Positions 24,626-63,292 of a stretch of 64,000 bases of DNA are shown here, piece by piece (position 1 is the first letter of the stretch; each line of letters opens with the position of its first letter). This stretch comes from Escherichia phage vB_vPM_PD06. The position numbers and the translations under genes were made by a program. The notes under the pieces were generated by a model that did not search any database, was not told where the DNA came from, and saw only the letters and a program-made list of their open reading frames with translations. The stretch lies in sequence record NC_052653.1. One strand, given 5' to 3'.

Positions 24626-24654
24626 AAAAGGAGCCAATAGGCTCCTTTTTGTTT
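24626..24654. terminator. bidirectional terminator between the convergent arms
   Basis: aaaaggagcc-aata-ggctcctttt with an A-run and a T-run on either side. + and - strand genes converge here. Confidence 0.75.
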
Positions 24655-26539
24655 ATGTAACATTGACTGTAAATCTGACAAGAGGTGATAACACGTCATT
24701 ATCAGCATCATAATGTGCAACATCAAACACTGCTGTACCTGCTGCAAACCCGTATTGTTCAACCTGATCTGCATAAGTAAATGTGTAAGTGTTAGTATCA
24801 AGAGTTTGTTCTGTAAGAATTGCTGCTGTGAGGACGTTTACATTTCGGAAGTAATGTTTGGTATATCCTGCTGGTTCCCAAGAAATAATTGCATCTTGGT
24901 TAGCTTGTCTTACAGCGGCTCCTCCTGTTGGAACAGCCATATCAACCCAAACAGGTGACGTTGATGTTAGGTCTGTACCGTCTGCTGCTGATTTAGCAAG
25001 TTTTGTAGCTGCTGTCTGGTATATAGAAGAAATATAATGGATACGACCATCAATACCTTCTTCATAAACATAACCACTGTAGCGTTCAGCACCATCCACC
25101 CAAGAACCAATGATAACATCGTCACGTGCTGTAGAGATGGTTCTTTGTACATTTCTGTATTTCTGCCAATCCACACCATTAACTTCTACACCATATAGAT
25201 AAGAACGTCCTAGGATCTGCCAAACAATTTTTGCTTGAGAAGCAGGAACTATTGTACGCATCTTATCAAAGATAGCTATCGTAGCATCATGGTAACGTGT
25301 AGTGTTACTGTATCTACCTGCAACAGTCGAAGATGCTGATACAGCATCATTTTCACCTTGTCCCCAAATAATTGCTTTAACCTTACTTGCATAAGGTGTG
25401 ACTTTAGTGATAAAGTTAGTTAAGCATGGCCCGTCTGCTGTGTTATCCAGATCATACCAGTAGTTGTCTGGTGTACCTGTTCCGGCTTTATCATCTGCAT
25501 ATTTATCTGCTGCTGACGATCCAGAAGCTGCATTTAACGGAAGAACTTCAGCATTTGCTAAACCACGTTGCGTAGCATATGCATTACGGGTTGTTGTGCT
25601 ACTCATTGCTGCTTTATTTGCACCAGATAATTCTGTAAAGTGTGCATTTACGTTATCTTGTCCAGCAAAGACAATAACTTCTTTAATGAATGAATCATCT
25701 GTAGCTATTGAGTTATTAAAGATAACGGCTGCTGCTTTGGTGCTCTTAACGCTAATTTTAAGGTATGTTGGAGCAAACCCATAAAGAGGAATAGAGTCAG
25801 AGATATCAAAGTAGGCGTAAGTATTCGTGGTTGTTGTAGTCCACTGGACACTGTTATTACTTAAATCTAATACTTCTACAGTATAAGTATCACCATCTAG
25901 CGGATCAGCTACATCCCAAGCAACACGAATGTCTCCATAGCTGTTTGCCACGGCTGTTACATTAGAAATAACAGGAACAGCATTAACACCTAAATAAGAA
26001 CTATCAGAGGCCACCACTGTTCCTTGATAAGTTGCAGTGCAACCTATACGGCAACTGCCATCTTTAAGAGCAGTTATTAATCCTGTAGGACTTACAGTAG
26101 CTACTTCTGGATCTGTTGTGGTGTACGTAATTACCATATCTGGAAGGTCTTTAGCACCTTCTGGACTGATTGTAGCAACCAATTGTTGAGTAGTTCCTGC
26201 ATCCATAGCAGACAGACTTTCAGTGTACACACTTAATTCTGAAGCATAGCCACCAGATTGATCAGTTAAGACAGCACCTAAATTATTTTTAGCTGTCATT
26301 ATTGCATCAAAACCGCCTTCAGCAACAAACTCCATCATACCGTTATTATCTATAACCATTTTGGTATTATCTGAAGATGAAAAAGCTATATCAAATAACG
26401 CACCATCTTCTGGTGAAACTGTGTATGTCAGTTGCTTTTTACTACCAACTATTGCAATACCAATAGAGGAAGTGGTTATAGATGTAGCTGTTACTACTGA
26501 AGCTGATGTTGTTGACATAAATAAAGGAATAGGATACAT
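24653..26539 (-). CDS. tail-associated protein with Ig-like (Big_2), FN3-like and SASA/sialate-O-acetylesterase-like domains
   Basis: Big_2-like VATISPEGAKD...ATVSPTGLITALKDGSCRI. Esterase-like blocks VIVFAGQDNVN and IIWGQGENDA. AAGGAG RBS. Confidence 0.7.
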   Translation of the reverse strand: MYPIPLFMSTTSASVVTATSITTSSIGIAIVGSKKQLTYTVSPEDGALFDIAFSSSDNTKMVIDNNGMMEFVAEGGFDAIMTAKNNLGAVLTDQSGGYASELSVYTESLSAMDAGTTQQLVATISPEGAKDLPDMVITYTTTDPEVATVSPTGLITALKDGSCRIGCTATYQGTVVASDSSYLGVNAVPVISNVTAVANSYGDIRVAWDVADPLDGDTYTVEVLDLSNNSVQWTTTTTNTYAYFDISDSIPLYGFAPTYLKISVKSTKAAAVIFNNSIATDDSFIKEVIVFAGQDNVNAHFTELSGANKAAMSSTTTRNAYATQRGLANAEVLPLNAASGSSAADKYADDKAGTGTPDNYWYDLDNTADGPCLTNFITKVTPYASKVKAIIWGQGENDAVSASSTVAGRYSNTTRYHDATIAIFDKMRTIVPASQAKIVWQILGRSYLYGVEVNGVDWQKYRNVQRTISTARDDVIIGSWVDGAERYSGYVYEEGIDGRIHYISSIYQTAATKLAKSAADGTDLTSTSPVWVDMAVPTGGAAVRQANQDAIISWEPAGYTKHYFRNVNVLTAAILTEQTLDTNTYTFTYADQVEQYGFAAGTAVFDVAHYDADNDVLSPLVRFTVNVT

Positions 26540-26550
26540 TTAATCTCCTT

Positions 26551-26575
26551 AAATAATAAGCCCCCGAAGGGGCTT
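26551..26575 (-). terminator. rho-independent terminator (TTCG loop on - strand)
   Basis: The - strand reads agcccc-ttcg-ggggct followed by tattattt. Confidence 0.55.
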
Positions 26576-26578
26576 TGA

Positions 26579-28549
26579 TTATGTGCGTTTAGCAACAATA
26601 GCATCCACGTAATCGCCAACACCACAATATGTTAGTTGTAGTATTGTTACTCCGTTAGGATCTGTATTAATATCACTGGAACCAATTACTTTGTAAGATG
26701 GATCTAAAGTAACAGTACGACCTCCAGTGGCATCTTGGATAAGATAAACTATTGCAGAGAATGGTTTAGGTTTTGTACTATCTTCGACACCAGGCCATGC
26801 TTTTATAGTAGCGTTACCAGTAAGATTCAACACATTCATGTTATGTGTTCCTGGAGGTGTCCAGTCCCCTGTAACAGAATTGTTGGTATATGCTGTAACC
26901 TCTATAAAATTAGTTGTTACTTTTGTTGGAACTATATCTTGACCATCTACAGAATTAGTGAGTTCTTCCCATGCCCCATCTTTACGAGCATAAGTCTTAC
27001 CATCACTAGGTGCATCTGTGATACTAGGTAGTGTACCTTGAGAAGTCCAGACAGTTGCAGATGTTTTTAAGAACACCTCGCCAGTGGAGATATTAAAGGC
27101 ATAATCACCTTGTTTACCATCACTAGAGATTGGATCTGTTGTTTTAACAATCCAAGTTGCACCGTCTGTACCGTTAGTACCAGCGTCACCTTTCTCACCT
27201 TTTTCACCCTTATCACCTTTCAAACTACCCATATCTACATATTCAGCAGTTTGAGTTTGTTCATTATAGGTGTAAATGTAAAGATGACCTGTATCTTCCG
27301 TCAGATAAGCATCACCGTAATTGGCTGTAGGAGGAAGCGCACTTGCAGACGCAACGTGTCCTTTTGCAGTGATTGGAGTACCAGCTAAACGACCAACATT
27401 TGTCCACTCTGTGGCTCCTTGCAACCAGACCCAAAGTTCATTATTGATCAGATAACCATCACCCTCTTCTCCAGTTTGTGGTAGTTCAGAAGTGTTAGTC
27501 AGAATGTCAATAATGGTCAACCCTGCACCAGTTGGCCCCGTCAAGCCTTGTATACCCTGTGCACCTTGATCACCCTTGTCTCCCTTATCACCTTTTTCTC
27601 CTTTCAGAGAGGCAATATATTCGTCAATAGTACCAACGTTACCAGCATTTAACCAGACTTGATAAGCTGAATCACCAGTGTTACCCTTATCACCTTTGTC
27701 GCCTTTATCTCCTTTTGGCCCCACTATAGCACCCATATTGATCCATTCTACACCGTTTGACACGTATAGATATGTACCAACACTCCATGCTTGAGATGTG
27801 TTTCCATGAGATGCAGAAGGAAGATCTGAAACGGAATTAGCTGCGCCTTGGTAATCAAAACCATTAGCATTATTACCTGGCACACCTTGTGGCCCCTCTG
27901 GGCCAGGCTCCCCTTTATCACCTTTAATTGAAGCAAGATAATCTAGTTCTGTACCTTCATTTCCTGCTGCAAGCCATACTTCATAAGCAGATTTACCTTC
28001 TGGCCCCTGTGAGTTTACTTTTCTCCAAGCAGTACCATCCCAAGCATACATATTCTCGCCTACAATCCATGCATCCCCTGCATTGTTTCCACTTGTAGGT
28101 AATTGGTTGGTATTAGATAGTGTCCCTAATAGCTTTAATGGAGCACCTGGATCACCTTTTAAAGAAGCCAACCACTGTGTCTCAGTACCTTGGAAACCAT
28201 TGTCTACGGCAATCTGGTAAGCTGATTTACCAGCTTCTGGGATGGATTCTCTAAGATCTTCAATTTCAGCTTCAATAGCATCTAATTCTGATTCTATTTG
28301 AGCAATGTCATCTGCATTACCCACATTTTTCCAAGCTGTATCTGAAATCCCTCCAGTAGATGTAGGAGTAGAGTTAGCAGGTACAACTTTAGGTAGAGAA
28401 CCTTTCCACTGATAGTAGTTACCGTCAGCTTCAAAGAGCAATGCTTCACGAGCATCTCTTAAGGTAAAACCACTTGCAAAACTTCTACGCTTTCTATAGC
28501 GAGACTCTACCATGTCTGCAATGGCACTATTTGGACGTGTTAAAATCAC
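26579..28549 (-). CDS. collagen-like repeat tail fibre, GTG start
   Basis: G-X-Y tracts (GDKGEPGPEGPQGVPG, GPKGDKGDKGDKGNTGD, GEKGDKGDKGDQGAQGIQGLTGPTGAG, GDKGEKGEKGDAGTNGTDG) alternate with SAYQ...ASLKG modules. Confidence 0.85.
   Translation of the reverse strand: MILTRPNSAIADMVESRYRKRRSFASGFTLRDAREALLFEADGNYYQWKGSLPKVVPANSTPTSTGGISDTAWKNVGNADDIAQIESELDAIEAEIEDLRESIPEAGKSAYQIAVDNGFQGTETQWLASLKGDPGAPLKLLGTLSNTNQLPTSGNNAGDAWIVGENMYAWDGTAWRKVNSQGPEGKSAYEVWLAAGNEGTELDYLASIKGDKGEPGPEGPQGVPGNNANGFDYQGAANSVSDLPSASHGNTSQAWSVGTYLYVSNGVEWINMGAIVGPKGDKGDKGDKGNTGDSAYQVWLNAGNVGTIDEYIASLKGEKGDKGDKGDQGAQGIQGLTGPTGAGLTIIDILTNTSELPQTGEEGDGYLINNELWVWLQGATEWTNVGRLAGTPITAKGHVASASALPPTANYGDAYLTEDTGHLYIYTYNEQTQTAEYVDMGSLKGDKGEKGEKGDAGTNGTDGATWIVKTTDPISSDGKQGDYAFNISTGEVFLKTSATVWTSQGTLPSITDAPSDGKTYARKDGAWEELTNSVDGQDIVPTKVTTNFIEVTAYTNNSVTGDWTPPGTHNMNVLNLTGNATIKAWPGVEDSTKPKPFSAIVYLIQDATGGRTVTLDPSYKVIGSSDINTDPNGVTILQLTYCGVGDYVDAIVAKRT
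27140..28228 (-). repeat. internal coding repeats of the fibre gene (about four units)
   Basis: A repeated unit of collagen tract, then (K/D)SAY(Q/E)(I/V)...Y(L/I)ASLKG, then LP..G..W.V....Y.W.G..W..VG, seen four times (the last partial). Confidence 0.7.
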
Positions 28550-28565
28550 TTTACTACTCCTTTTA

Positions 28566-28588
28566 TAAAGGGGCGAAAGCCCCTTTTA
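28566..28588 (-). terminator. GC hairpin/terminator after the tailspike gene
   Basis: aaaggggc-gaaa-gccccttt with AT-rich runs on both sides. Confidence 0.45.
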
Positions 28589-28589
28589 A

Positions 28590-31004
28590 TTAAGCATTAT
28601 TGACAGTAACAAAAGTAACAGGGTTCAGAGCTTTAATTTGTGTATTCTCTGCTGTAGGTGTTACAATTGGATCTGCAATATCTATTGTGTACAAACTATT
28701 TGTCACATATGTAGCACGTGCTATAGTTGTCACAAGATCGCCGCCATTTGCACCTGCACCTGGAATAACAATCTTAGTACCTGCTGCTTTAGCGTAGCCA
28801 TTACTAGCCCAGTTTAAAGCATTAGACTGTAGATAGGTTTGACCTGTAACAGTTGCTTTTATTTTCTCATTATCACTAAAGAAAGCACCACCTGCTGTAA
28901 CAACGTGTTTTTTACCGCTTGCACAATGAATAACTGTTCCAGTAGGGAAGTCACGCCCACCTGGGAATTCATCATAATCTGTAAAATATTGTTCAGAAAT
29001 AGTGGTTAAGACTGGCCCACGATGACCTGTACCATCAACAGCAGTTGGAACACCAAAGTTATTTCCAACCTGATCGCAACGATCCGTGTAGATTTTAGCA
29101 AAAGAAACTGTTGTTTCATCTCCGCTAAGTGCTGTACATCCTACCCACTTCATATAAGTGAATTGGCTGCGAGTATAGAAACCGCCACCACTTCCTTCTC
29201 CGCTCCCGTGTTGACCAATAAAGTCAATACTACGGCAACGAATATTATTAAAAGTAGAGCTAGATGGTAGCCCACGCCATTTAAAATCATTACAATTGAT
29301 GTTACTAACAATTGTAGAGTTTTCCCAGGCGTCTGATCCAGCCGTTGCAATCTCAATCGAAGATTCTGGAATATCCAAATTCTTAATTGTAAAGTTAATT
29401 GGTGGCCCCGCATATCTTCCACCGTTAACACCCCAGTCAATAAAGACCATGCGTGTTGAAACAGACGGATCATTAAGCAGATAACCAGTTAAACCATCAA
29501 CTTCAAAGTCTTGGCATCCGTATAATGCAACACCACAAGTAGTTAAACCTGTACCTGTTGAAACTGCTGTGTTAGGATAAACTTCGTTATCACGTATTGT
29601 GAAGTTTTTACCCATTTCAACGTGTAGACATTGACGGCAATTGTAAACTCTATTTCCAACGATACTGAAGTTACGTACATATTGTGAATCAGGAGCATCA
29701 ACACCATATGGGCCACTACCTGCTACACCAATACCAATACCCCAGTTTGCACCTTGTCCAGAAGCATCTACGTTAGCAATGTGGTTATTCTCGATGATCA
29801 AACCTTCAGTGTAGTGTCTTTGAACTACGTTAAGTTCAATAGCATCACCTTTAATATCGTGAATATAGTTGTTAGAGTAACGCCCATAGGTCATTACTTC
29901 TCCAGTACCTTGTTGCAGGATCGCATATTTACAACCATACATTTCGTTGTAACTGAAGTCCAACGTACCTTCACTTGTCATTGCTTGCATTAAAAATGCT
30001 GCTGTAGATGTTGCGTTGGAGAAGATATTACGATAGAATCGGCAATCACCACCTAACATCTTAACATAACATTTTTCAAAGCGAACGTTTTCAATCCAAC
30101 AGGACACAGTAGAAATCATTGTTCCACCGTTACCAGTGAATGTACCACCATACCAACGAATACCAGACATAGCAATTGAGCTTGTGAATCTATAATTCTT
30201 ATCTGCACGTACTTGAATGTTATTCGTGTTAGCGAAAGTAATGGTTTTTAGAATTGCTTGAGTATCATCGGTAACTCCATCACCAATTGCACCAAACTGC
30301 TCAGGCGTTACAAAGTATTGAGCTTGTAACAGGTTGCCTCCAGATGGAAGACCAACCATTGCTGCACCAGTGGTAGATGACAAAAGGTTTTTCTCTACGT
30401 AAGAAGTAGAGGCTGTTGTTTTACCAATAAAAGCAAACAATTTGTTAGGTAGACCAGTAGACGGATCTAAACCTAATGGTTCTGCCAGAATAATTTTACT
30501 ATCTTTGATAGTAAATGCTTCACCTTGAATCTGAATTACACCGTTAATGGTGACAATAGCATTATCAAAGATATAAGGAGGACTGATTTCTGTTTCATAT
30601 CCTGTAGCACCTTTAAAATACCAAGGATACACATCTGAAGCTAACTGTTCAGTTTTAAGAGCGTACAGAGTCCAGTTACTGTCCCCTACAGGTGTGCCCC
30701 GCATAGGTACAGGGTTCGCAGTAGTGGCAGATGGGGCATAATAGTACCCACTCAAGATACCGTTTTCAAAATAACGTAACTGGTTAAATACAGTTTCAGT
30801 TGATCCTGCTGACCAAGCAACAGGACTCTTAAAGAAGAAGTTATCAACAAGTGCTTTACGCAGTGTAGGTATTAAACCTGTTTCGGTTTCTACAGTTGCT
30901 GTAGCATCCCCATTAATAACATCATGCATCTGGTTAGACGAGAATATAACCAGATCAACACCTTGTTCTAGTGTCGTAGCAGGATATGTTGGAAAATTCG
31001 CCAT
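28590..31004 (-). CDS. tailspike with pectate-lyase-3 / right-handed beta-helix depolymerase domain
   Basis: VTPEQFGAIGDGVTDDTQAI is the hallmark Pectate_lyase_3 N-cap. Long Gly/Asn-rich beta-helix-like body (804 aa). Confidence 0.8.
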   Translation of the reverse strand: MANFPTYPATTLEQGVDLVIFSSNQMHDVINGDATATVETETGLIPTLRKALVDNFFFKSPVAWSAGSTETVFNQLRYFENGILSGYYYAPSATTANPVPMRGTPVGDSNWTLYALKTEQLASDVYPWYFKGATGYETEISPPYIFDNAIVTINGVIQIQGEAFTIKDSKIILAEPLGLDPSTGLPNKLFAFIGKTTASTSYVEKNLLSSTTGAAMVGLPSGGNLLQAQYFVTPEQFGAIGDGVTDDTQAILKTITFANTNNIQVRADKNYRFTSSIAMSGIRWYGGTFTGNGGTMISTVSCWIENVRFEKCYVKMLGGDCRFYRNIFSNATSTAAFLMQAMTSEGTLDFSYNEMYGCKYAILQQGTGEVMTYGRYSNNYIHDIKGDAIELNVVQRHYTEGLIIENNHIANVDASGQGANWGIGIGVAGSGPYGVDAPDSQYVRNFSIVGNRVYNCRQCLHVEMGKNFTIRDNEVYPNTAVSTGTGLTTCGVALYGCQDFEVDGLTGYLLNDPSVSTRMVFIDWGVNGGRYAGPPINFTIKNLDIPESSIEIATAGSDAWENSTIVSNINCNDFKWRGLPSSSTFNNIRCRSIDFIGQHGSGEGSGGGFYTRSQFTYMKWVGCTALSGDETTVSFAKIYTDRCDQVGNNFGVPTAVDGTGHRGPVLTTISEQYFTDYDEFPGGRDFPTGTVIHCASGKKHVVTAGGAFFSDNEKIKATVTGQTYLQSNALNWASNGYAKAAGTKIVIPGAGANGGDLVTTIARATYVTNSLYTIDIADPIVTPTAENTQIKALNPVTFVTVNNA

Positions 31005-31345
31005 TAATTTTTGTCCTTACTTTGTGTGCGCTTTGTAATCTCCTCTAGCATTAATTGAACAGGAGCATTTTTTAAATCCATTATTTTTTCAATCTTCTGT
31101 TCTAAGGCAGTATTATTTGCCATTAATGTAGAGTTGATCTGGTTAAGCATTTGAGCAAGTTCTGCTTTGGTAGCATAAGTGGATTCAACAAACACCAACT
31201 TCTTTTCTAGTTCACGGTATTTCTCTTCCATTTTGTCCAAATCACTTGCCATATCATCTATCTTCTGTTTGAAGACCACCCAGATTACACCAATAAGAGG
31301 GATAATCGCCTCTTTAGCGATATCCCATACTTCTGTTAGCTCCAT
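31004..31345 (-). CDS. membrane-anchored coiled-coil protein (113 aa)
   Basis: One N-terminal TM (AIIPLIGVIWVVF) followed by a heptad-rich helix. ATGA-type coupling to the downstream gene. Confidence 0.6.
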   Translation of the reverse strand: MELTEVWDIAKEAIIPLIGVIWVVFKQKIDDMASDLDKMEEKYRELEKKLVFVESTYATKAELAQMLNQINSTLMANNTALEQKIEKIMDLKNAPVQLMLEEITKRTQSKDKN

Positions 31346-31354
31346 ACATTACCC

Positions 31355-31906
31355 CTATTTCTTAGGTCTTGTAGGCCAAGTTATATTAGGTGCATCTTCA
31401 ACGTTAATTTGAATCAGTGTTGCACGATATAGTTTAACTTTTCCTAACCAATCTTTTTGTTCTTGAGATAAACCTTGTAATTCCTCTAAATCTTGAATCG
31501 CAGACACTTGATTCGTAGCCCAAGTTAACTCCTTTTCTAACTTAAGAGTAGCATCTTCAATAGCAAGACTATTGTGAGGAACAAATTTACCTTCAACATA
31601 TTGCCAAGAGCCAATATTACTTTCATCTTCTATTTTATCTGGTGCATTATATGTAACTAAAATAGATTGTCCGGCAGGGAAATAGGTAGTAACATCTTTA
31701 GTAGCACCACGTACAATATTATTATCATCTAAGGTAATGAAATAAGCGTCGGGATATTCAGCCATCAAAGTTTTTTGAAGTTGATACCAATCATTACCAT
31801 CCTTGTCTTGCAAAAAACCACCGCCAACAGAAAGATAAAGAATGTTCTCCTCTGTTAATTCCGGTTCGTACAATTCAAAACCTGTAAAAATAACATCTTT
31901 TTTCAT
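31355..31906 (-). CDS. tail fibre assembly chaperone (Tfa-like)
   Basis: C-terminal pattern KDWLGKVKLYRATLIQINVEDAPNITWPTRP is typical of the tail-fibre-assembly family. Follows a fibre gene. Confidence 0.7.
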   Translation of the reverse strand: MKKDVIFTGFELYEPELTEENILYLSVGGGFLQDKDGNDWYQLQKTLMAEYPDAYFITLDDNNIVRGATKDVTTYFPAGQSILVTYNAPDKIEDESNIGSWQYVEGKFVPHNSLAIEDATLKLEKELTWATNQVSAIQDLEELQGLSQEQKDWLGKVKLYRATLIQINVEDAPNITWPTRPKK

Positions 31907-31915
31907 AGACTCTCC

Positions 31916-32899
31916 TTATGAAACGTTGGTTACTGTTATCCAGCTACCATTAATATAATATTGTAGCGGGGCTGACCAATACCAAGCACCACGAAGTTCT
32001 TTCTTATCACCAAAGCCCCAACCTGTGATCACGTGACCAGCATAGAAACGAGACTCGGACACACCAGCTTGGATACGTGCTCCTAGACGGATAGAAGACA
32101 CAACAGAAGAAACTCTATTGTTAATGTTATTAATTTGGCCTTGCAAGTTGCTATTAACGTTGTTAATATTATTTTGCAGTGTACTTTGCAATGAGTTTAG
32201 TCTTGAGTTAAGATAATCTAATCTTACAAGAGCATTACCATTGCCAGTATCTTGACCAGAATTAGAACGAGGATTGTCTATTAAAACATAACCTGCATCA
32301 TACAAACGGACTCCACAAGATGTTCCTCCAGTAGATGGATTTATTCTATAAATATAGAGTTGACCACCTGCACCTGGTTCAGAAGACATATTGCCTACTG
32401 TTTGTCCATTATAGTTTCTAAAAAATAATGTTGCAGGATCTGTAGCACCTGTACCACAAGTGTAAATATCACCTGCATAGATAGCACCACCATTATCACG
32501 CTTAACAAGGACATTCCCTACAACTTGGCTTGATGTTGCGTCTGTAATGTTAGCTGATAAGTGATTGTGACTGTTATCTACGACTTGAATAGATAATGTT
32601 ACAGCAGCATTACCATTCCATGTAACTTCACCTGTAGCATCACCTGCCATTGTAATTTTAGTACCGACTATAGGAAGATATGTCGTAGGCAATGTTGGGA
32701 AGAATTCATCTTGCATATAGCGAATCCAAGACCCAATATTGTTTAAGATCCAGTTCATTTCTTCACAAGTCATAATCTGACCAAAGTCCATACCGACATT
32801 ACGGATGGTTTCTTTTGGTCTAATCTTGTTTGTGTTTCCCGTTCCTGGGAGGGTTACTGTTTGTGTCGCCCAGTCAGGGTAGTATTGTGGCTTTGCCAT
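31916..32899 (-). CDS. tail fibre protein
   Basis: 327 aa, Gly/Asn-rich, with an Asn-rich heptad stretch (NNINNVNSNLQGQINNINNRV). Sits between the baseplate genes and the Tfa gene. Confidence 0.7.
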   Translation of the reverse strand: MAKPQYYPDWATQTVTLPGTGNTNKIRPKETIRNVGMDFGQIMTCEEMNWILNNIGSWIRYMQDEFFPTLPTTYLPIVGTKITMAGDATGEVTWNGNAAVTLSIQVVDNSHNHLSANITDATSSQVVGNVLVKRDNGGAIYAGDIYTCGTGATDPATLFFRNYNGQTVGNMSSEPGAGGQLYIYRINPSTGGTSCGVRLYDAGYVLIDNPRSNSGQDTGNGNALVRLDYLNSRLNSLQSTLQNNINNVNSNLQGQINNINNRVSSVVSSIRLGARIQAGVSESRFYAGHVITGWGFGDKKELRGAWYWSAPLQYYINGSWITVTNVS

Positions 32900-32912
32900 T
32901 AAGGGTAACTCC

Positions 32913-33542: not shown

Positions 33543-33544
33543 TT

Positions 33545-35032: not shown

Positions 35033-35277
35033 TAATTATCCTCCTTATCAGGGGCAGGTGATCTGCCCCAACGTAAATCTATTAAATTCTTCATTAGTCT
35101 GGATGGTGTGATCATAAAAACAAAAGCCCAGCCCATCCATTCAGGAATTTCTTTATCAATTCCCAAATAAATAAACATACTGGACATAACAATCATACCA
35201 ATAGCATTCCAAACTTTAGTAGAACTGACTTTATTATCAGGATATGTACAAAACATACCTATTAAAAATTTTCTCAT
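35032..35277 (-). CDS. small membrane protein (81 aa, 2 hydrophobic segments, charged C-terminus)
   Basis: VWNAIGMIVMSSMFIYLGI and WMGWAFVFMITP, with a C-terminal RWGRSPAPDKEDN. The start overlaps the upstream stop (ATGA). Confidence 0.6.
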   Translation of the reverse strand: MRKFLIGMFCTYPDNKVSSTKVWNAIGMIVMSSMFIYLGIDKEIPEWMGWAFVFMITPSRLMKNLIDLRWGRSPAPDKEDN

Positions 35278-35582
35278 GGTGCGTTCTCATTACTTTTTAA
35301 ATCACGATATACAGCTAATTCCCCAAGGTCTACAGAACCCGCTGAATGCACAAGTACAGCAGCACTAAGACTAATGGCAGTAGTACCTGGGGCAATATCA
35401 GCAGGTAGGGAATACGCCCTTTGCGTCTCCTTATCATAGATAACCTTATACCCACCCAAATCCACACCAACTGAGAAGTAAACAACCTCAGATTGTTTAA
35501 CTCCAAAGTGACGGGCTACTGCTTGTTTATTGGTTAAGATTCCGGTTGAACCTTTACCACCTTGGGAGAACATTTCGTTCAT
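35274..35582 (-). CDS. hypothetical protein (102 aa)
   Basis: AAGAGG RBS. MNEMFSQGGKGSTGILTNKQAVARHFGV... looks familiar from the N-termini of tail proteins, but I cannot place it. Confidence 0.6.
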   Translation of the reverse strand: MNEMFSQGGKGSTGILTNKQAVARHFGVKQSEVVYFSVGVDLGGYKVIYDKETQRAYSLPADIAPGTTAISLSAAVLVHSAGSVDLGELAVYRDLKSNENAP

Positions 35583-35829
35583 AACAACCTCTTTGTTTTT
35601 CTAAGTAAGCCCCTCTTTGGAGGGGCTTGCAGTGGTAGTGACAACACTTTGAGTTAGTACGATAGTAACTAAAGACAAGATTAACCCTGCTACGATATGT
35701 TTTCATCATTTTATCACATGGCGATGACATGCGCTTGCAGGACATAGTTTGTATGGGTTGTGCGGAATGCCATTTTTGGCCTCTTGTCATCAATAAGTAA
35801 GTATTCATTTCCCCCGCCGAAGCGGGGTT

Positions 35830-37947
35830 TTATATTAAACCATACACTACATTGTGTATTGTTAAACTGCCAATCGAGTTCCCAACATTAAAATTCACCT
35901 CAGCCTTGTATGCTCCTTGAGGGACTGAATCCACTAAAGCATAAAAATTGAATGTGTCGCCTACTGGGATGTTATACCCTATGGAATCCGCAACAGCATT
36001 TCCTTGCTGGTCCAGGAATCTAATTGACGCCAGGGTTGTTGTTAGATTTTTAGCCCAAAAACCAAGCTGAAAATAACGACCAGGCTCACAATCAATGATT
36101 GTTTGGGTGAAATTAGCTGCTGCCTCAGCTGATGGTACAGATAAAACAAAAGAAGTTGAAAACATTAAATCATTAGGAACATCGTTTGCTGTAGTAGCAG
36201 TGACAACTCCTGTTCCAGTTTGCGATAGTGTCCAGTTAGATGTGTTTAAAAACTGTCCTGAGCCATTACTGATGCTATTAATATAAGGGCTTACAATGCT
36301 CCCTAAATTCCAGTTACTTGTGATAAATCCTGCCCGTGGATAGCACCCTCTGGACATTACTTTTTTGCTCGCGCCACCTATCAACTGTCTTGTGGGAAAT
36401 CCAGTAGCAATCGTTGTATTCCCATAGAGGGATAACGAGCAATTATTTAGGCTAACAACCCCATCGCCGTTGCTAACAATAGGTACACTGGTATACCCGT
36501 CTGGGAGTAGTATCGTCGAATTACTGACGGTTAATCGTGAACTGCCCTCCACAGTAAACCCAACGAAACTCTGACCAGGTTGGTACTCAATGTTACCGTT
36601 TGTGAAAACCACTGTTGCGTTATCGGATAGCGCAACAGCAGGGTCAAAATATCCTGATTTTTTACCTGCTGGCAGAGAGCAGCCATCGAATATAAATTGA
36701 CCATTAACAAATGTGAAAGGTCCACCGTTGTCAACCATCCAACAATGATTAAATCTTATAACTTCACCGGAATTTGCTGGTGAATTGAAAATAACAGAAT
36801 TTGTAAAACTTCTGGACAACGCACATTTATCAAAAAGAATACGATATGCATTATCAAGAAACTCAATCCCGGCAGTTGAGATAAACCCACTATTAGAGAT
36901 TCTTAACTCTGATACTTCACCACTGGTAGAACCACCGATAGCCAATTTCCTGGAACCTTTCCCGACGAATGACACACCACTAATCAAAGAAGTTGCGTTA
37001 ATTGCATCTCTGTTAGTGTAATCAGCGCCTGTATTAATGATGGTTAGGTAGTAGTCACCGGTTACAGATGAAGATTCTGTTAAAGTACATTTATTTTTTC
37101 CAATAAGTGCGCCTTTTGCTATGTCGAAAATAATTGGTGTTGTTATCTCTCCTGAAACAGGGACTACACAGTCAAACCCGGCAGCGTTTATTGTGTTGAT
37201 GAATACCGCCAAATCTTCGGTTCCAGTATAACCAGCATCATACACATCCACGGAACCATTGAAGAATTTTCTTTTCCATACCACACCGTTTCCGGGGAAG
37301 GTAACAATATTGTCTATAGCTGTATCCGCGCTAACAGCTACCATAATACCACCACCAAAGTTAAAACCGCTCACATACGAATCAAGTATTATGGAATCAC
37401 CAATTGATCCTGATATTGATGATAACTCAGAAACTGATGATGCAGTTCCTATATAAGACAAGCCATTTGTTTTATTTAAATCACCCCTCAGGGTGGCATC
37501 ACCAACACTAGCCCACGCACTAGGACCAACACCACCGGTTGATGTAGGGGTTGAGTCAGCGGGAACAGCTTTAGGGAAAGCACCACCCCATGTATAGCAC
37601 TGTCCACCTGCAATATACCAAACAGCATCAGTATTATTATTTAATGTAGCACCATCCTCAAAGCTACCATCAACAAGTGTTAACCCCGCTTCAGCAAGAC
37701 TACGACGCCACTGTTCACGATCATTAAGAAGATTGTTATTCAACTCTTCCTGAACAGTATTACCATTTGAGGATTGTATTAAATCTGCTCCATCTGTATC
37801 TTTCAACTGGGTGGCTAAAACCACCCCAGTGTCAGTAAGAAAATTAGAAACTGTGCTTTTAACGGTCTTATCAGGTTGGTCTAAAACTAGGTAATCAGAA
37901 CCATTAACTTTTGATGTTTCCGGTAAATTAGTAATTGTAGTTGACAT
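35830..37947 (-). CDS. tailspike / depolymerase (beta-helix-like), GC-richer than its neighbours
   Basis: The N-terminal anchor MSTTITNLPETSKVNGSDYLVLDQ is shared with the 43000..43473 product. The module YTWGGAFPKAVPADSTPTSTGGVGPSAW is shared with the collagen fibre. Long Gly/Ser/Asn-rich body. Confidence 0.75.
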   Translation of the reverse strand: MSTTITNLPETSKVNGSDYLVLDQPDKTVKSTVSNFLTDTGVVLATQLKDTDGADLIQSSNGNTVQEELNNNLLNDREQWRRSLAEAGLTLVDGSFEDGATLNNNTDAVWYIAGGQCYTWGGAFPKAVPADSTPTSTGGVGPSAWASVGDATLRGDLNKTNGLSYIGTASSVSELSSISGSIGDSIILDSYVSGFNFGGGIMVAVSADTAIDNIVTFPGNGVVWKRKFFNGSVDVYDAGYTGTEDLAVFINTINAAGFDCVVPVSGEITTPIIFDIAKGALIGKNKCTLTESSSVTGDYYLTIINTGADYTNRDAINATSLISGVSFVGKGSRKLAIGGSTSGEVSELRISNSGFISTAGIEFLDNAYRILFDKCALSRSFTNSVIFNSPANSGEVIRFNHCWMVDNGGPFTFVNGQFIFDGCSLPAGKKSGYFDPAVALSDNATVVFTNGNIEYQPGQSFVGFTVEGSSRLTVSNSTILLPDGYTSVPIVSNGDGVVSLNNCSLSLYGNTTIATGFPTRQLIGGASKKVMSRGCYPRAGFITSNWNLGSIVSPYINSISNGSGQFLNTSNWTLSQTGTGVVTATTANDVPNDLMFSTSFVLSVPSAEAAANFTQTIIDCEPGRYFQLGFWAKNLTTTLASIRFLDQQGNAVADSIGYNIPVGDTFNFYALVDSVPQGAYKAEVNFNVGNSIGSLTIHNVVYGLI

Positions 37948-37955
37948 TTTTACTC

Positions 37956-40115
37956 CTATATATAAAATTTTTGTGTTGTTACTAAATCTTCTCCAGATTT
38001 AGTGGCTAATGTAATTCCACTTATAGTGGCAATCTCAACATTTACCTGTTTAAGAGTGATATCTTGCAAGTAGCAATTCAAAGGCACATTACCCATATAA
38101 AACACTTGGGATTTTGAATTAAGAACAGTTATTGAATCATGCATTATTTGTGGGTAAGCCCATATGTATTGATATAAACCAACAAACTTCTGATCATTCA
38201 ATACAATATTACCTATAATCATTTTCCACAAATATGTTCTGTAGTCTGATTCAGGATCAAAGCCATATAATGGTGCTAGAGTTGCGTCTGGAACAAACCC
38301 TGCAAGATAATGTATCTTATCATAACTAAAACCTAGTTGCTCATTAGGTATTTTGATAGCGTCGAAAGATCTTTCCATCTGACCTTCCAACAACCAGTCA
38401 TAACATTCTGAACAATAAAAGTCAAAGTTTTCTGGGATATAATAATCTTTAGGGAAGTTAACAAACTCCATCATACCGTTACCTAAAATGGATGGCACAA
38501 ATGGTAATAATGTAACTTTAGCTCCAGGATAGGCTAATTTAGTATCTGTTGCAAATTTAGCAACACGCAGTCCTAATGTTTTAGATAGGAATGCATAATA
38601 TTCATCATATGGTGTACCAGTTTTATAATTCTTAACTGTACCAACATCTTGTGCATATAATCCAGTTTCATTATTAAATGCAACTTTGGTTGCATAATCA
38701 TAAATACACGGGAGATTGGTAGCTGTGTTATACCACCACCACGGTTCACCAACCTGAATAATAACAGGAAGATCATTGGCAGCGGATATAGAAGCTATCT
38801 TATTTATTACACCTTGTAAATAATTCATCCCTTCATCAATTGAAGGAGATAAAACATAACTTGGTGGCTCATAACCTGTAGCAGCCAGATCATCATTCCA
38901 AGTATGTTGTACCCATTCTACAGGACACACTGTACTCATAAGTTCAAAACTTAAGGAGTTCATTACTGTGTAGCCCATAGCTTTTGCATTAGCGTGGAAA
39001 TTATCAAACCAGGCTTCTGTTGCTGGGTTTAAATATTCTGTTCTATTCAAAGCCCATTTATTAGATCCAGCATCCCAACTAAATTGATAATAGTGTGACA
39101 TACCATTATAATGGTTAATCATATCTCTATAACCTAATCTATAGGTGTTAGAAATAACTCGCTCTGGGGTTAGGTTATACATATCATCATAAGATGTACA
39201 CATTCTTATGGTGTGTGCTGGAACATTTAAATTACCCATATTCATCATACTATAACCCGTATCAGGTTCCAGTATGGTAAACTTAAAGGAAAGATCCTCA
39301 TTGTCTACAGGAATAATATCTTCAATTTCTTGATACCTTGTGGAGATCAAGGAGAAGAACATATTATCTATCTGTGTAGTGTCAACAACAATATCATTTT
39401 CTGGCCCAGATTTTAAATTTGAGAAATCTAATTTTATTGTTGCTGTTTTACCATCCTCTGAAACTTCTTCTGCATAAAAGTTTAGAGATACATAATGAAC
39501 TGTTTCATCCTTCAGTGTCACTGTTAAGGATGGCAATAATTTTTCTTCTTTTAATCCAGGAACACCTTGACTAAGTTCCATTTTAAACCAAAGTTTCTCT
39601 TTACTTAAGTCAGAATGTTCTTGGTAGCCTAATCCTTTGTGATCATATTTATCGTAAGTTGACCAAATAATCCCAGCAAGACCAGCCACTGTCCTATTAA
39701 CCATTCTTGCTGTGAAAGAATCACCATTAGAGATAATAGAACAACTTTCTGTTGCTTGAGAATCTATTGTCCAAAACTTAGGATCAAACATTCTAGACTT
39801 CACAACAGGCCAAGTTAGCGGGGTTGTATTCGATTGATTAGTCGTAATAACACAACGAATTTCTTCATTGATCATCATGTTATTTTGACTTATGCTAGTA
39901 ATCTCAAGAGTAAAATAAAGATCTAAAGAGTTTGCCGGACGTTCATATACATCAACCACCACAGTAGCAGAATCTGCATCAGAAGGGAACGTTACTGTTC
40001 CCTGTTTAGCTACATAATCTCTACCAGCGACCGCCGTTCCATCGACGGTCTTATAGCTGAATGAACTGGCATTTACTCTCGTATTTCGAGTTACAGTAAA
40101 AATAGCCTGTTTCAT
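37956..40115 (-). CDS. tail-associated protein with N-terminal Calx-beta-like domain and a large uncharacterised C-terminal domain
   Basis: FSYKTVDGTAVAGRDYVAKQGTVTFPSDADSATVVVDV matches the Calx-beta pattern. 719 aa, located in the RBP block. Confidence 0.6.
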   Translation of the reverse strand: MKQAIFTVTRNTRVNASSFSYKTVDGTAVAGRDYVAKQGTVTFPSDADSATVVVDVYERPANSLDLYFTLEITSISQNNMMINEEIRCVITTNQSNTTPLTWPVVKSRMFDPKFWTIDSQATESCSIISNGDSFTARMVNRTVAGLAGIIWSTYDKYDHKGLGYQEHSDLSKEKLWFKMELSQGVPGLKEEKLLPSLTVTLKDETVHYVSLNFYAEEVSEDGKTATIKLDFSNLKSGPENDIVVDTTQIDNMFFSLISTRYQEIEDIIPVDNEDLSFKFTILEPDTGYSMMNMGNLNVPAHTIRMCTSYDDMYNLTPERVISNTYRLGYRDMINHYNGMSHYYQFSWDAGSNKWALNRTEYLNPATEAWFDNFHANAKAMGYTVMNSLSFELMSTVCPVEWVQHTWNDDLAATGYEPPSYVLSPSIDEGMNYLQGVINKIASISAANDLPVIIQVGEPWWWYNTATNLPCIYDYATKVAFNNETGLYAQDVGTVKNYKTGTPYDEYYAFLSKTLGLRVAKFATDTKLAYPGAKVTLLPFVPSILGNGMMEFVNFPKDYYIPENFDFYCSECYDWLLEGQMERSFDAIKIPNEQLGFSYDKIHYLAGFVPDATLAPLYGFDPESDYRTYLWKMIIGNIVLNDQKFVGLYQYIWAYPQIMHDSITVLNSKSQVFYMGNVPLNCYLQDITLKQVNVEIATISGITLATKSGEDLVTTQKFYI

Positions 40116-40123
40116 TATTTTCC

Positions 40124-43000
40124 TTATTTGGTTACATCAACACTAATATCATTCATAGTTAGAACAGTTAGTGTTGGTATGTTACTATTATCCAAAATTG
40201 GTAAAGCGTTTTGAGGGTTTAGTTTACGATACAAGGCATATAAACCAAAACCACGTAATAGTTCTCCAGCATGGAAACCAAAGAACATTCCGTTATCTGA
40301 ATCTGGGCGTGGTGCAACACTCCAGGAACCATTCATCGGATGGTTAGGGGAAAGCACAATATAGTTTTGCTGAATCAGATCAAAACATCTGTCTGCTACA
40401 ATACCAATGTTTGGAATTTGTGAATCATAACCTGCCAAGCCCATGATTGAACAACCCGCCATAAACAGTGCAGACATATGACTAGTAAAGTCATCTATAG
40501 GTGCAAGAACTGTACCATCTGGATTAAAGATAGTTGGTGTTCTTCCATCATTATTGTCTTGGAACCATTTAAGGTAGTTGATCCAATTTTTACAAACAGT
40601 TACTAGTTTTTCAGGAGGTGTTTCTCCTCTTTGTACAAGTTCGTATACAGCATGACAAGCACAGTAGAATGCACGAGCTTCATAACCATCCCACGCTTTT
40701 TCATTCCAGTGTTTCATTGTAAACGTATTAGGTTCACCGTATTTTCTTGCATCCCAACGATCCCACACATATGCTTGTGCCATAGGCCCAGGCATCACAG
40801 GATCAAACGTGTTATAAAACCACATTTGAGCATCATACAAGAAATCAATACTGTTGTTTAAACGTGTCCAATCAATATCCCTACCTGCGAAACAGTATAA
40901 GGAAGGATACTGGTATCCTGGGTATGGAATACCACGCCATCCATCGTATAATGCAGTGTTTGGGTCACTGATATTAGAGAATGGAATTATTCCTGGTGTG
41001 TAATTAAGACTATTTAACTTATAGTCAATAATAGTACAATCACCTAACTTAGCAGTATGAGGATTTGAAGCCTGTACAGTAATACGGAAGTACATGGTAT
41101 AATCATCACCAGAAGATGACGAATATCTTTCAGGTACATCGTTAATACAATAGAAATCTATTGTTCCTGTTAAACCATTGACAGGAGCCGTATCAAGAAC
41201 TAAATTTACCTGATCTACAGCAGTAAGATTTATTGCTGAAGGTTTAGGATCTGTTTCTGGATGATTAGGCTGGTAAGCACTTAACTTAAAAGCAGAGGCT
41301 GATAAAGTCTTCGTACTCCATGCCCCTTGCGTTTTAGGCAGCATAGCCCACCATCTCCAACCTTGAGCATCCGTGATAGTCATGTTAAAGTCATCTTCAT
41401 ATGTTCTATATGTAATAGACTTAACATTAGCTTTTGATGTAGGAGTTAACCAAAAACCAACAGTGATACCACCATCCGTATCCATTGATGCAGTAACAAT
41501 CTGGTCATTATTAGTTCCAGCAATACCTGTTACATACTTATATTGTACCACAGTATTGTCACCCCAGTCAACAATAATTCGCGGATCTGCGATAATATAT
41601 GTTCCACCACTAGGAGGGGTACTTCTCATAAAGCTGGATAGTGGAATATCCATGCTTGTCATATTAGCTGTACCTAGTGGTAAGCCACAACGGTAAGTTA
41701 CTGTGTTATTTTCATCTTTGGTCTTACTTAATTCCAACTCTGGACGGAAAAGAATACCATGTCCTGCGTCATCTACACCTTGAAACTGAACTCGTAATTT
41801 AGAGTTCTGATCAACTTTAAACCAAATGGATTGCTGTTCTAATGTTGTTTGAGCAGCAACATCTTGTCTAATAACAATATAACCTAAAGTATCTCTTGAA
41901 TATTTAGGTATTGCTGTAGATGGATACGAATAATCGTAAGAGATGCCATCTGTAAACGGAATAGTTGCATATGTAGACTTACGGAAGAATTTATCAAACA
42001 TATCAATGTTTGAGTAATCTTGACACACTAACAGTGAAGATTGCCAGCATAGCCAATATTTTCTTTCTCCTGTAATTTGGTACATCAGGTAATTAGCATC
42101 ACACCACCAAGTTTCGGCATCTGACGCATTATCCTGAAAGCCAATTTCTACCGGAACGTTAACTGGTCTGTTATGCCACATAGTGTTACGCTCCATTAAA
42201 TAACCACCGTGTTCAACAGGGTTACAAGTCGCATAGTTAAATTTATATGTACCGTTTACAGAAGTATTTTTTAGTTGAACTGTTCCGTATTGAGATGTTG
42301 GAAAACCTTCTTCTAAGATATTTCCATCCCAATCAACTTTACGTCCTAGACGATCAATGATCCAATCAACATCCCATTGATCTCCATTCTTAGACCAATC
42401 TGTTGTACCATCTGCATTAACAGCATATACTGTAGCGTTTACAGAGTTCCATCCTAGATTACCATTAAAAGCAAACCATGCTTTATCAAGGTATTCTCCC
42501 CAATGTGGAGCACCATGAGGAATAACTGTTCTACCGTTAGTCCACGTCATTAAGCTACCCTTAAAACCTCCGTGTGTAGGGTAGCCATCATCTGTAAGAG
42601 GATAGTGTGCAAGACGTGGTTCTTTACCGTTAATAATCCAGTTAGGGCGATATTTTGCTGGCGGATCTGGGATAGGTTGACCACCAAAGAAGTAATCTAT
42701 ATAGGCTTGCCAATATTTTTTAGCAGAGTCTAAATACTTTGTATCGCCGGAAGCCAGGTATGCATAAGCGCAACCAAGAATAAGCACGGATTGACCTTCT
42801 GTTGTAGCATCCCCGTTTGGTTGCCCTTCTTGAGCAGTCCAGTTTATAAAGTGTCTGTTATTAGCTAGAACGTTTTGTGGGTTTAATACATAGTGTTGCA
42901 CTGTAGGATCTACAGTTAAACCTGTATTACGATCTAAGAACTGAATATGTCCATCGATCAGTTGAAAAACATTGTCAATTCTGTGCTTAATTCTTGACAT
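40124..43000 (-). CDS. large tail-associated putative polysaccharide-degrading protein (958 aa)
   Basis: The N-terminal region (GQSVLILGCAYAYLASGDTKYLDSAKKYWQAYIDYF) resembles alpha/alpha-toroid glycoside hydrolase or lyase folds. Tentative. Confidence 0.55.
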   Translation of the reverse strand: MSRIKHRIDNVFQLIDGHIQFLDRNTGLTVDPTVQHYVLNPQNVLANNRHFINWTAQEGQPNGDATTEGQSVLILGCAYAYLASGDTKYLDSAKKYWQAYIDYFFGGQPIPDPPAKYRPNWIINGKEPRLAHYPLTDDGYPTHGGFKGSLMTWTNGRTVIPHGAPHWGEYLDKAWFAFNGNLGWNSVNATVYAVNADGTTDWSKNGDQWDVDWIIDRLGRKVDWDGNILEEGFPTSQYGTVQLKNTSVNGTYKFNYATCNPVEHGGYLMERNTMWHNRPVNVPVEIGFQDNASDAETWWCDANYLMYQITGERKYWLCWQSSLLVCQDYSNIDMFDKFFRKSTYATIPFTDGISYDYSYPSTAIPKYSRDTLGYIVIRQDVAAQTTLEQQSIWFKVDQNSKLRVQFQGVDDAGHGILFRPELELSKTKDENNTVTYRCGLPLGTANMTSMDIPLSSFMRSTPPSGGTYIIADPRIIVDWGDNTVVQYKYVTGIAGTNNDQIVTASMDTDGGITVGFWLTPTSKANVKSITYRTYEDDFNMTITDAQGWRWWAMLPKTQGAWSTKTLSASAFKLSAYQPNHPETDPKPSAINLTAVDQVNLVLDTAPVNGLTGTIDFYCINDVPERYSSSSGDDYTMYFRITVQASNPHTAKLGDCTIIDYKLNSLNYTPGIIPFSNISDPNTALYDGWRGIPYPGYQYPSLYCFAGRDIDWTRLNNSIDFLYDAQMWFYNTFDPVMPGPMAQAYVWDRWDARKYGEPNTFTMKHWNEKAWDGYEARAFYCACHAVYELVQRGETPPEKLVTVCKNWINYLKWFQDNNDGRTPTIFNPDGTVLAPIDDFTSHMSALFMAGCSIMGLAGYDSQIPNIGIVADRCFDLIQQNYIVLSPNHPMNGSWSVAPRPDSDNGMFFGFHAGELLRGFGLYALYRKLNPQNALPILDNSNIPTLTVLTMNDISVDVTK

Positions 43001-43473
43001 TAAATCACTCCTGCCATCACTAAACTACCTATCCAGGTAGCTCCATTATCATAACTAACAAATTCAAAAATATCTGTAGCTCCCTGTTTATAACTCAAAA
43101 CAGGAGCTCGACCAAAACTCCATTTAACAGATTGAGGCCACGTTACTTTATTTGCTCCACTTCCTTGACGTAGGGATAGAGTAAAGTTTTGAACAATGTT
43201 AGTTGTAACTGGAACATTACTAAATGAAATACTGCAAGTTGGACTAGATAAAGTGGCAGAGAAATACTCTGCCGTGCTAATATCTAAAGCTAGGGTATTT
43301 GTAACAGTACCCCTTGCAGAAAGACGATTTCGTGTAACACCAGCACCAGCAAGAAGAACACGTAATGATGTTTTCTTAGTGATGCCTGATTGATCTGTTA
43401 CAAAATAATCTGTGTCTGAAACAGATGTTGTTACAGGTAGATCAGACACCTTGATTGTAGTTAAATCAGCCAT
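43000..43473 (-). CDS. small tail fibre/adaptor protein (157 aa)
   Basis: The N-terminus MADLTTIKVSDLPVTTSVSDTDYFVTDQSG parallels the tailspike N-terminus at 37947. Confidence 0.6.
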   Translation of the reverse strand: MADLTTIKVSDLPVTTSVSDTDYFVTDQSGITKKTSLRVLLAGAGVTRNRLSARGTVTNTLALDISTAEYFSATLSSPTCSISFSNVPVTTNIVQNFTLSLRQGSGANKVTWPQSVKWSFGRAPVLSYKQGATDIFEFVSYDNGATWIGSLVMAGVI

Positions 43474-63060: not shown

Positions 63061-63104
63061 GTGTCAATGTAATTTAATCATTACACCAGAAGGGAGGTAT
63101 TTAG

Positions 63105-63183: not shown

Positions 63184-63198
63184 CAATCTGTAATAATT

Positions 63199-63283: not shown

Positions 63284-63292
63284 ATAATAAGT

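Follow-up and report, generated by a model that had tools for sequence, protein, structure and literature searches.

A phi92-type multi-fibre adsorption locus with a predicted O78-type tailspike in Escherichia phage vB_vPM_PD06

The locus described here lies in a window of 64,000 nucleotides (nt) from the Escherichia phage vB_vPM_PD06 (NC_052653.1), in which positions 24653-43473 form an uninterrupted minus-strand block, transcribed from 43473 towards 24653. Both limits are exact gene boundaries, 43473 being the start of an open reading frame (ORF) of 157 amino acids (aa) and 24653 the stop of an ORF of 628 aa. The block consists of 14 co-oriented minus-strand ORFs with overlapping or tightly spaced junctions. 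In order of transcription their products are 157, 958, 719 and 705 aa long and, beyond a spacer of 247 nt, 102, 81, 495, 209, 327, 183, 113, 804, 656 and 628 aa. A promoter scan gave a result no better than that for shuffled sequence. The features, with the identity of each product to its counterpart in phage phi92, are as follows.

43000..43473, minus strand: 157 aa gp140-like proposed adaptor; 100% identical to phi92 gp140; matches phrog_9017 'tail fiber protein'.
40124..43000, minus strand: 958 aa gp141-like putative glycan-processing enzyme; (alpha/alpha)6 toroid with beta-sandwich insertions in the predicted structure; 99.5% identical to phi92 gp141.
37956..40115, minus strand: 719 aa gp142-like predicted NGR-targeting fibre; Calx-beta, NCTSP_N and TIM-barrel domains; 98.5% identical to phi92 gp142.
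35830..37947, minus strand: 705 aa variable tailspike; genus anchor, D2/Tail_spike_N and O78-type receptor-binding domain (RBD).
35583..35829, minus strand: intergenic spacer of 247 nt; two GC-rich hairpins form the 3' border of the exchangeable spike cassette.
35274..35582, minus strand: 102 aa D1-only ORF; spike head of the CBA120-TSP1/G7C-gp63.1 type, with a match to PDB 4OJ5.
35032..35277, minus strand: 81 aa gp144-like small membrane protein with hydrophobic segments; 96% identical to phi92 gp144.
33545..35032, minus strand: 495 aa gp145-like baseplate wedge protein; Baseplate_J, E 3.5e-11; 99.4% identical to phi92 gp145.
32913..33542, minus strand: 209 aa gp146-like baseplate wedge protein; DUF2612, E 3.5e-6; 99% identical to phi92 gp146.
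31916..32899, minus strand: 327 aa gp147-like short tail fibre ('fibre III'); phrog_4465, E 3e-109; 98.5% identical to phi92 gp147.
31355..31906, minus strand: 183 aa gp148-like Tfa chaperone; Caudo_TAP PF02413, E 1e-9; phrog_136, E 2e-39; 80% identical to phi92 gp148.
31004..31345, minus strand: 113 aa gp149-like protein with an N-terminal hydrophobic segment and a coiled coil; 98% identical to phi92 gp149.
28590..31004, minus strand: 804 aa gp150-like colanidase tailspike; PDB 6E0V; phrog_6117 'colanic acid degradation'; 98.6% identical to phi92 gp150 over 804 aa.
26579..28549, minus strand: 656 aa gp151-like collagen-repeat fibre; PF18668 and Collagen; 97.7% identical to phi92 gp151.
24653..26539, minus strand: 628 aa protein with immunoglobulin (Ig) and SASA/SGNH-like domains; Big_2, E 2e-12; homology to N4 gp65.

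The gene order of the block is that of phi92 gp140-gp153: homologues of gp140, gp141 and gp142 are followed by a spike, gp144, the wedge pair gp145 and gp146, the fibre gp147, its Tfa protein gp148, gp149, the colanidase gp150, the collagen fibre gp151 and the Ig protein. This synteny and the protein identities listed above indicate that the locus is the phi92-type multivalent adsorption apparatus of a Justusliebigvirus, and essentially that of phage PD114. By megablast, vB_vPM_PD114 (MH675927, Justusliebigvirus, Stephanstirmvirinae) aligns over 100% of the region with a DNA identity of 99.2%; 49 phage records, PD114 included, cover at least 80% of it, and among the matches listed the closest are almost all Justusliebigvirus or phi92-like phages. 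All 14 ORFs are annotated in both PD114 and PaulScherrer. The PD114 spike is of the same O78 type (99.9% aa identity), and what separates the locus from PD114 is point differences plus an indel of 3 residues in the collagen fibre. The latter has 656 codons here as against 653 aligned in its PD114 and phi92 homologues, so the window is not strictly identical to PD114. The locus is already known in kind, as a near-copy of a public phage and an instance of the phi92 paradigm; a literature search found no published paper on PD114 itself.

An earlier, sequence-only reading of this DNA had set the same boundaries and proposed an arsenal of six tail proteins together with small adaptors, on a multivalent baseplate of the phi92 or CBA120 type whose specific enzymatic set was unknown. 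The phi92 likeness is borne out by taxonomy and synteny. The enzymatic set proves to be phi92's own at 97-100% protein identity (80% for Tfa), with one spike swapped for an O78-type one. The number has to be revised, since the list behind it names seven proteins and the count here comes to eight, when fibres, spikes and proteins associated with fibres are taken together and the gp140-like protein of 157 aa is included. Two wedge genes (495 and 209 aa) had gone unmentioned, and the block also holds the chaperone, the 102 aa probable stub and two small membrane proteins.

The multivalent adsorption apparatus of phi92, nicknamed a nanosized 'Swiss army knife', is said to have been described by Schwarzer and co-workers in 2012 (J Virol 86:10384). 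It was taken up again between 2021 and 2026 in work on the BASEL phages (PMC8594841), on Eryne and BME3, and in a 2026 cryo-electron microscopy (cryo-EM) study (PMC13450770). The locus shares with phi92 the spike anchor (aa 1-54), the colanidase and the short fibre, and differs from it in three respects: the spike RBD is O78-type here and a K1/K92 endosialidase in phi92; the 247 nt spacer and the 102 aa D1 ORF are both absent from phi92; and the gene for the Ig and SASA-like protein, intact here, is split into two coding sequences (gp152 and gp153) in phi92. Other Justusliebigvirus isolates, among them PaulScherrer/Bas60, BME3, VEcB and alia, are known relatives with the same type of locus, but with different spike RBDs and with a 939 aa allele of the last gene, the distribution of which is given below.

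In the cryo-EM reconstruction of phi92 (PMC13450770), gp145 is a wedge protein which serves as the platform for fibres I and III, gp146 is also part of the wedge, and gp147 has been fitted to the density of fibre III. Fibres of the gp147 type are homologous to GpS/GpU of phage Mu (PMC8594841). The gene for the Tfa protein follows that for the 327 aa fibre at a distance of 10 nt, downstream, and its product matches PF02413 at 39.1 bits (cut-off 22.1), in keeping with the classical fibre and Tfa chaperone that had been recognised from the sequence. The 81 aa gp144-like and 113 aa gp149-like proteins, annotated 'membrane protein' and 'lipoprotein' respectively, are hydrophobic small proteins conserved within the fibre cluster; in Pfam the 113 aa protein gives only weak noise of the coiled-coil type.

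The 804 aa protein, read earlier as a pectate-lyase-type tailspike, is indeed a tailspike and corresponds to the phi92 colanidase gp150; it matches PDB 6E0V at 1418 bits over aa 180-804. According to the cryo-EM study, which cites its ref. 25 on this point, gp150 hydrolyses the beta-1,4 glucose-fucose bond of colanic acid (PMC13450770). Residues 12-126 match residues 15-130 of a phiTE fibre chain, 9CUY_g (E 2e-18), which, judged from its modelled residue range, is probably the long tail fibre of phiTE. In phiTE, as its structure shows, that fibre's N-terminal bundle binds the wedge protein 2A as well as the sheath initiator's C-terminal helix. Because the N-terminus of the colanidase is homologous to this wedge-binding fibre, it is plausible that the colanidase is mounted directly on the baseplate.

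The gene for the 656 aa protein has an AAGGAG ribosome-binding site followed by a GTG start. Its product carries Tail_spike_N (PF18668, E 4e-21) at aa 11-77 with no D1 ahead of it. The collagen repeats noted from the sequence are confirmed by a Collagen match (PF01391, E 1e-8) which, at 35.2 bits, exceeds the cut-off of 27.2; there are four G-X-Y runs of 6-9 triplets and three 'SAYQ' repeats.

The 719 aa protein was correctly described as fronted by Calx-beta (PF03160, E 1.7e-9). It also contains NCTSP_N (PF23844, E 5e-21, 75.1 bits, cut-off 27) and a TIM barrel of the NCTSP type (PF23845, E 3.9e-82, 276.5 bits, cut-off 27). In PDB 9LC0 it matches chain M, which is gp64 of phage N4 (E 2e-27), and chain I (gp65). 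An N4-gp64-like fibre has been tied genetically to wecB/nfrB (NGR) dependence in phi92-like phages (PMC8594841, PMC8669472; BASEL, Sellner et al.), a dependence common to N4 and relatives of the present phage, and the 719 aa protein is predicted to be the fibre for the NGR glycan. In N4, gp64 and gp65 (PDB 9LC0, 9YF4) form the heterodimer of a podovirus non-contractile tail sheath. For the TIM barrel of the 719 aa protein the homologues in N4 are gp64 and part of gp65, but here the homologous segments sit on two separate myovirus baseplate proteins, and the plug-binding domains D9-D10 of gp65 have no counterpart. Two adjacent segments of gp65 are divided between these proteins, residues 359-416 mapping to the 719 aa protein and residues 429-592 (9LC0_I) to a domain of the 628 aa protein. 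This split is a hint of the Rosetta-stone kind, and suggests that the two proteins act together on the same glycan.

The 628 aa protein had been read as an Ig/FN3 protein with a SASA-esterase-like domain. The Ig part is supported by the Big_2 match. The SASA match (PF03629) lies below the gathering score (15 bits against 24.8, E 0.019), and recurs weakly in all six members of the family examined, with a best E of 1.6e-5. The block-I nucleophile of SASA/SGNH esterases is a serine in a GQSN/GDS motif. At the corresponding place (residues 291-300) the 628 aa protein has FAGQDN, distant homologues of 40-45% identity have FAGGDN and N4 gp65 has FAGESQ, so that Asp stands at the position of the gp65 block-I Ser in all six family members. 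At the putative block V, two homologues have Gln in place of His. An AlphaFold2 model, built from six sequences only, is confident for the Ig domains alone; at residues 290-550 the predicted local distance difference test score is 27-77, and the beta-alpha-beta pattern seen there, compatible with an SGNH fold, comes from a low-confidence and unreliable part of the model. 'SASA-like' appears a fair description of this domain, while 'esterase' is doubtful because of the replacement of Ser by Asp throughout the family.

The last gene occurs in three states, one of them the split form of phi92. It encodes 628 aa here, in PD114 and, judged by the extent of DNA alignment, in VEcB and ECGD1; in alia, PaulScherrer and reportedly BME3 it encodes 939 aa, the additional 311 aa being a C-terminal module, and this is the allele in most of the close relatives found. 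The possibility that the 628 aa form is a truncated pseudogene of the 939 aa form was rejected, as distant homologues, 645-647 aa long, share its end point; it is the long form that has gained a C-terminal module.

The 157 aa gp140-like protein begins with a short docking peptide and ends in a domain of about 100 aa. Over residues 9-46 it shares 37% identity with residues 5-42 of the 705 aa spike (E 7e-5), which suggests that the two fit the same kind of socket. For the 958 aa gp141-like protein, a structure-prediction run upheld the earlier description as alpha/alpha-toroid-like: the model shows an (alpha/alpha)6 toroid that two large, beta-rich insertions interrupt. It aligns structurally with (alpha/alpha)6-barrel glycoside hydrolases (GH) and epimerases at 7-13% identity. 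No Pfam or PDB sequence match to the protein was found, profile search included, and there is no detectable sequence similarity to the GH8, GH76, GH88/GH105, GH48 or AGE families of (alpha/alpha)6-barrel enzymes, from which the insertions also set it apart. Invariant acidic residues are present, among them D64, E68, D294, D333/D336, D750 and E913 as candidates for a place in the barrel pocket. On the strength of the modelled fold, the protein is a putative glycan-processing enzyme.

Homologues of gp141 of the same length and 44-57% identity occur in prophage-like elements of Enterobacter, Escherichia, Pseudomonas, Gluconobacter and marine bacteria. In three prophage contexts (a Pseudomonas P2/HP1-like prophage, a Gluconobacter element where the genes follow the tape-measure gene and an Enterobacter element where they follow head genes) the gene directly upstream ends in a gp140-like C-terminal domain (42-47% identity, E 2e-23 to 9e-31), preceded by an N-terminal part of variable length, about 70 to 450 aa; over the wider set of loci the range is about 57 to 450 aa. 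The gp140-like domain ends 0-62 nt from the gp141 start in 72 of 79 loci; these are IMG/VR and genome loci with enough upstream DNA, which are not independent and span four identity tiers. This pairing supports a role for gp140 as an adaptor which presents the (alpha/alpha)6 protein, and by gene context the gp140 C-terminal domain and gp141 constitute a conserved two-gene module. A more speculative extension, to which only a small probability is attached, is that this is a widespread module of adaptor or fibre tip plus glycanase, found in lytic myoviruses of the rV5/phi92 kind, in P2/HP1-like prophage and in other prophage-like elements, and that in phi92-type virions it accounts for an unassigned peripheral density (e.g. 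fibre II) and acts on a conserved, not serotype-specific, envelope glycan. The gp140 C-terminal domain shows no BLASTP similarity to the C-terminus of the collagen fibre; both match one long-fibre PHROG, at different positions.

The main departure from phi92 is the 705 aa spike. Its layout comprises an anchor (aa 1 to about 54), D2/Tail_spike_N (aa 93-150; PF18668, E 4e-18) and an RBD (aa ~152-705). The match to phi92 gp143 is confined to aa 1-54, at 94% identity, whereas CBA120 TSP4 (PDB 5W6H) matches over aa ~91-705 at 1125 bits. This bears out a second tailspike, as proposed earlier, but its description as GC-richer holds only marginally, with a GC content of 0.408 for the gene against 0.380 for the window and 0.419 for the collagen gene. 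By tblastn the spike is 87.6% identical to that of phiHAO78-1, 81-86% to those of PJ16, ASO78B and AVIO78A, 79-82% to TSP4-type spikes of Kuttervirus and 70-77% to those of N4-like phages, and many of the matches are phages isolated on O78 hosts. Within the Stephanstirmvirinae of the database searched, the RBD is present only in PD114. CBA120 TSP4 cleaves the O78 antigen, as reported by Plattner 2019 and cited in PMC10408124. The possibility that TSP4 is the O157 enzyme was rejected: in the literature TSP2 is the O157 spike and TSP4 the O78 one, and the host labels of the best matches concur. The RBD thus falls, by sequence, in the O78-specific subtype, with D2 and beta-helix RBD homologous to its members at 79-88% identity, and cleavage of O78 is predicted. 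In contrast to TSP4, the spike lacks the branching domains XD1-3, is anchored by a phi92-type peptide and belongs to a different family of phages.

Comparison with the DNA of Phapecoctavirus Ro121c4 places the exchange points at single base pairs. Homology breaks at 35831/35832, the stop codon and hairpin of the spike gene, and at 37495/37496, the end of D2/Tail_spike_N, where it stops and then resumes, so that only codons ~152-705 of the spike are exchanged. These breakpoints coincide with 'motif one' and 'motif three', described by Pas et al. 2023 (PMC10408124) as spike exchange points, the latter being a terminator.

Taken together, the locus is very probably a module of the baseplate periphery for host recognition, encoding a multivalent adsorption apparatus in which several fibres and spikes surround one wedge. 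The wedge of the 495 and 209 aa proteins would carry several trimeric appendages, as has been shown for phi92. The exchangeable spike would dock via its genus-specific N-terminal peptide, and a beta-helix RBD of the O78-cleaving subtype would fill the slot of the phi92 K1/K92 endosialidase. The gp150-like spike would cut colanic acid; the 719 aa protein, by means of its Calx-beta and TIM-barrel domains, would engage the wecB/nfrB-dependent NGR glycan; and the Mu-GpS-like short fibre, folded with the help of Tfa, would bind the lipopolysaccharide core and help to trigger contraction. Three further conserved parts would complete the apparatus, namely the collagen fibre, the Ig and SASA-like protein and the (alpha/alpha)6 protein, carried by the gp140 adaptor. 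Host range would shift by exchange of the RBD cassette between the conserved D2 on the 5' side and the terminator hairpin or the D1 stub on the 3' side.

Several observations weigh against this model or parts of it. The activities of all the parts are assigned by homology. The phi92 cryo-EM study (PMC13450770) found several fibres mounted together, with fibre I attributed to gp143 by inference, its density being unresolved; fibre II was left unassigned, gp150 and gp151 fit its density poorly, gp140 was tried in it alone, and gp141 and gp142 are unmentioned. The proteins gp141, gp142, gp151 and the 628 aa protein have been placed in no virion map; for this reason, and given the poor fit of gp150 and gp151, some of these four may be substoichiometric, non-fibre or not virion-borne. 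The nucleophile Ser of block I is not found in the 628 aa family, and the SASA-like domain may be a non-catalytic, glycan-binding 'pseudo-esterase'. Between the O78-type RBD and the nearest relatives that are characterised or host-typed there is a divergence of 12-21%, and the spike could have drifted in specificity.

The alternative which survives best, possible though rather unlikely, builds on the same points. It holds that only three or four of the products are true receptor-binding proteins (RBPs): the spike, the colanidase and the short fibre, with the gp142-like protein as a possible fourth. The 958 aa, 628 aa, collagen-fibre and gp140-like proteins would then be structural or decorative proteins of the baseplate or tail, or assembly factors. 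Only three fibre types per wedge are resolved in phi92, and three fibres are likewise seen in two Vequintavirinae with nine annotated fibre genes. The splitting of the 628 aa gene in phi92, which is nonetheless viable, and the missing catalytic Ser of the SASA-like domain point the same way, and gp141 is unusually conserved for an RBP, at 44-57% identity across prophages of distant hosts. Against this alternative stand features of gp141: its predicted (alpha/alpha)6 fold is typical of glycan-active enzymes, many Asp, Glu and Trp residues are invariant, the beta-sandwich inserts resemble carbohydrate-binding modules and, in the P2/HP1-like prophage, the gene occupies the tail-fibre position after the J/I wedge genes. 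The BASEL authors, moreover, noted conserved glycan-binding and glycan-hydrolysing domains across the locus (PMC8594841). The broader multivalent apparatus remains the preferred account.

Downstream of the spike gene, the spacer at 35583-35829 contains GC-rich hairpins at 35812-35827 and at about 35607-35628, and agrees with the 'motif three' terminator of Pas et al. 2023. Absent from phi92, it is 94-99% identical in Phapecoctavirus and in some N4-like phages. An ORF of 84 aa (35554-35808) inside the spacer was judged spurious, as it has no family match and is unannotated in relatives. The 102 aa ORF which follows is ~93% identical to D1 of CBA120 TSP1 (PDB 4OJ5 residues 1-95, E 4e-49), with further PDB matches to 4QNL (G7C gp63.1), 9D84 and 5W6F; its PHROG matches sit at the N-termini of many spikes, and in DNA it shares 82-88% identity with spike genes of Kuttervirus at their 5' ends. 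A '102 aa' spike coding sequence had been noted previously by the authors of BME3. The ORF is 79% identical in PaulScherrer and 100% identical in Phapecoctavirus ZCKP1, where the flanking genes are just 80-87% identical; identity between genera in spite of such flanks points to recent co-transfer. The ORF is probably a recombination stub, imported together with the spike RBD cassette. Most simply, it would be the remnant of the gene that came next in a tandem array of spikes, and at minimum it would serve as a 3' homology arm.

It could instead be a functional adaptor, such as a trimeric plug in the docking site or a partner in trans of the collagen fibre, but this seems improbable. In favour of an adaptor, the ORF is preceded by a good ribosome-binding site, ends in a stop that overlaps the start of the following gene and is intact in both Justusliebigvirus and Phapecoctavirus, while the collagen fibre starts with D2 at residue 11 and lacks a D1 of its own. 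Yet phi92 possesses gp151 and does without the ORF, the homology of the ORF stops exactly at the D1/D2 boundary, a known recombination hotspot, and its identity across genera between more diverged flanks speaks for recent co-transfer with the spike cassette and not for long-term selection in place. A stub remains the favoured interpretation. Least tenable, and in effect refuted by the sequence comparison, is a branched complex of the CBA120 (Ackermannviridae) type, in which spikes hang on each other via the XD domains of TSP2 and TSP4 and not each on the wedge: the likeness to CBA120 suggested at the outset extends to shared modules (the TSP1-like D1 of the 102 aa ORF, D2/Tail_spike_N in two proteins and the TSP4-homologous RBD), but the branched XD-domain architecture is absent, positions 1-326 of the TSP4-family phrog_7992 (the XD region) being unmatched while only 327-420 and 426-686 are matched, and in place of four tandem spike genes there is one full spike, bearing the phi92 gp143 anchor, with a D1 stub, in a genome of Stephanstirmvirinae backbone.

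Two observations were made elsewhere in the window. At 17491-20805 on the plus strand lies a DNA polymerase ORF of 1104 aa; its 3315 nt equal the length of the intein-containing DNA polymerase precursor gene of PaulScherrer, and it probably carries an intein as well. At 62883-63598 on the minus strand six tRNA genes are clustered: Ile-GAT, Met-CAT, Leu-TAG, Phe-GAA, Pro-TGG and Gln-TTG.

As an adsorption apparatus the locus adds little beyond phi92, and the sequence of a near-identical phage is already public. It does allow a prediction of host range, which would comprise O78 E. coli (an avian-pathogenic serogroup, also associated with enterotoxigenic E. coli), colanic-acid-producing strains and NGR-bearing strains. 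The spike locus provides a worked example of RBD cassette exchange with breakpoints at the level of base pairs. Finally, the pairing of the gp140 C-terminal domain with gp141, the predicted fold of gp141 and the Ser-to-Asp change in the SASA-like domain bear on the role and the site of the conserved, non-variable 'fibres' of phi92-like phages.

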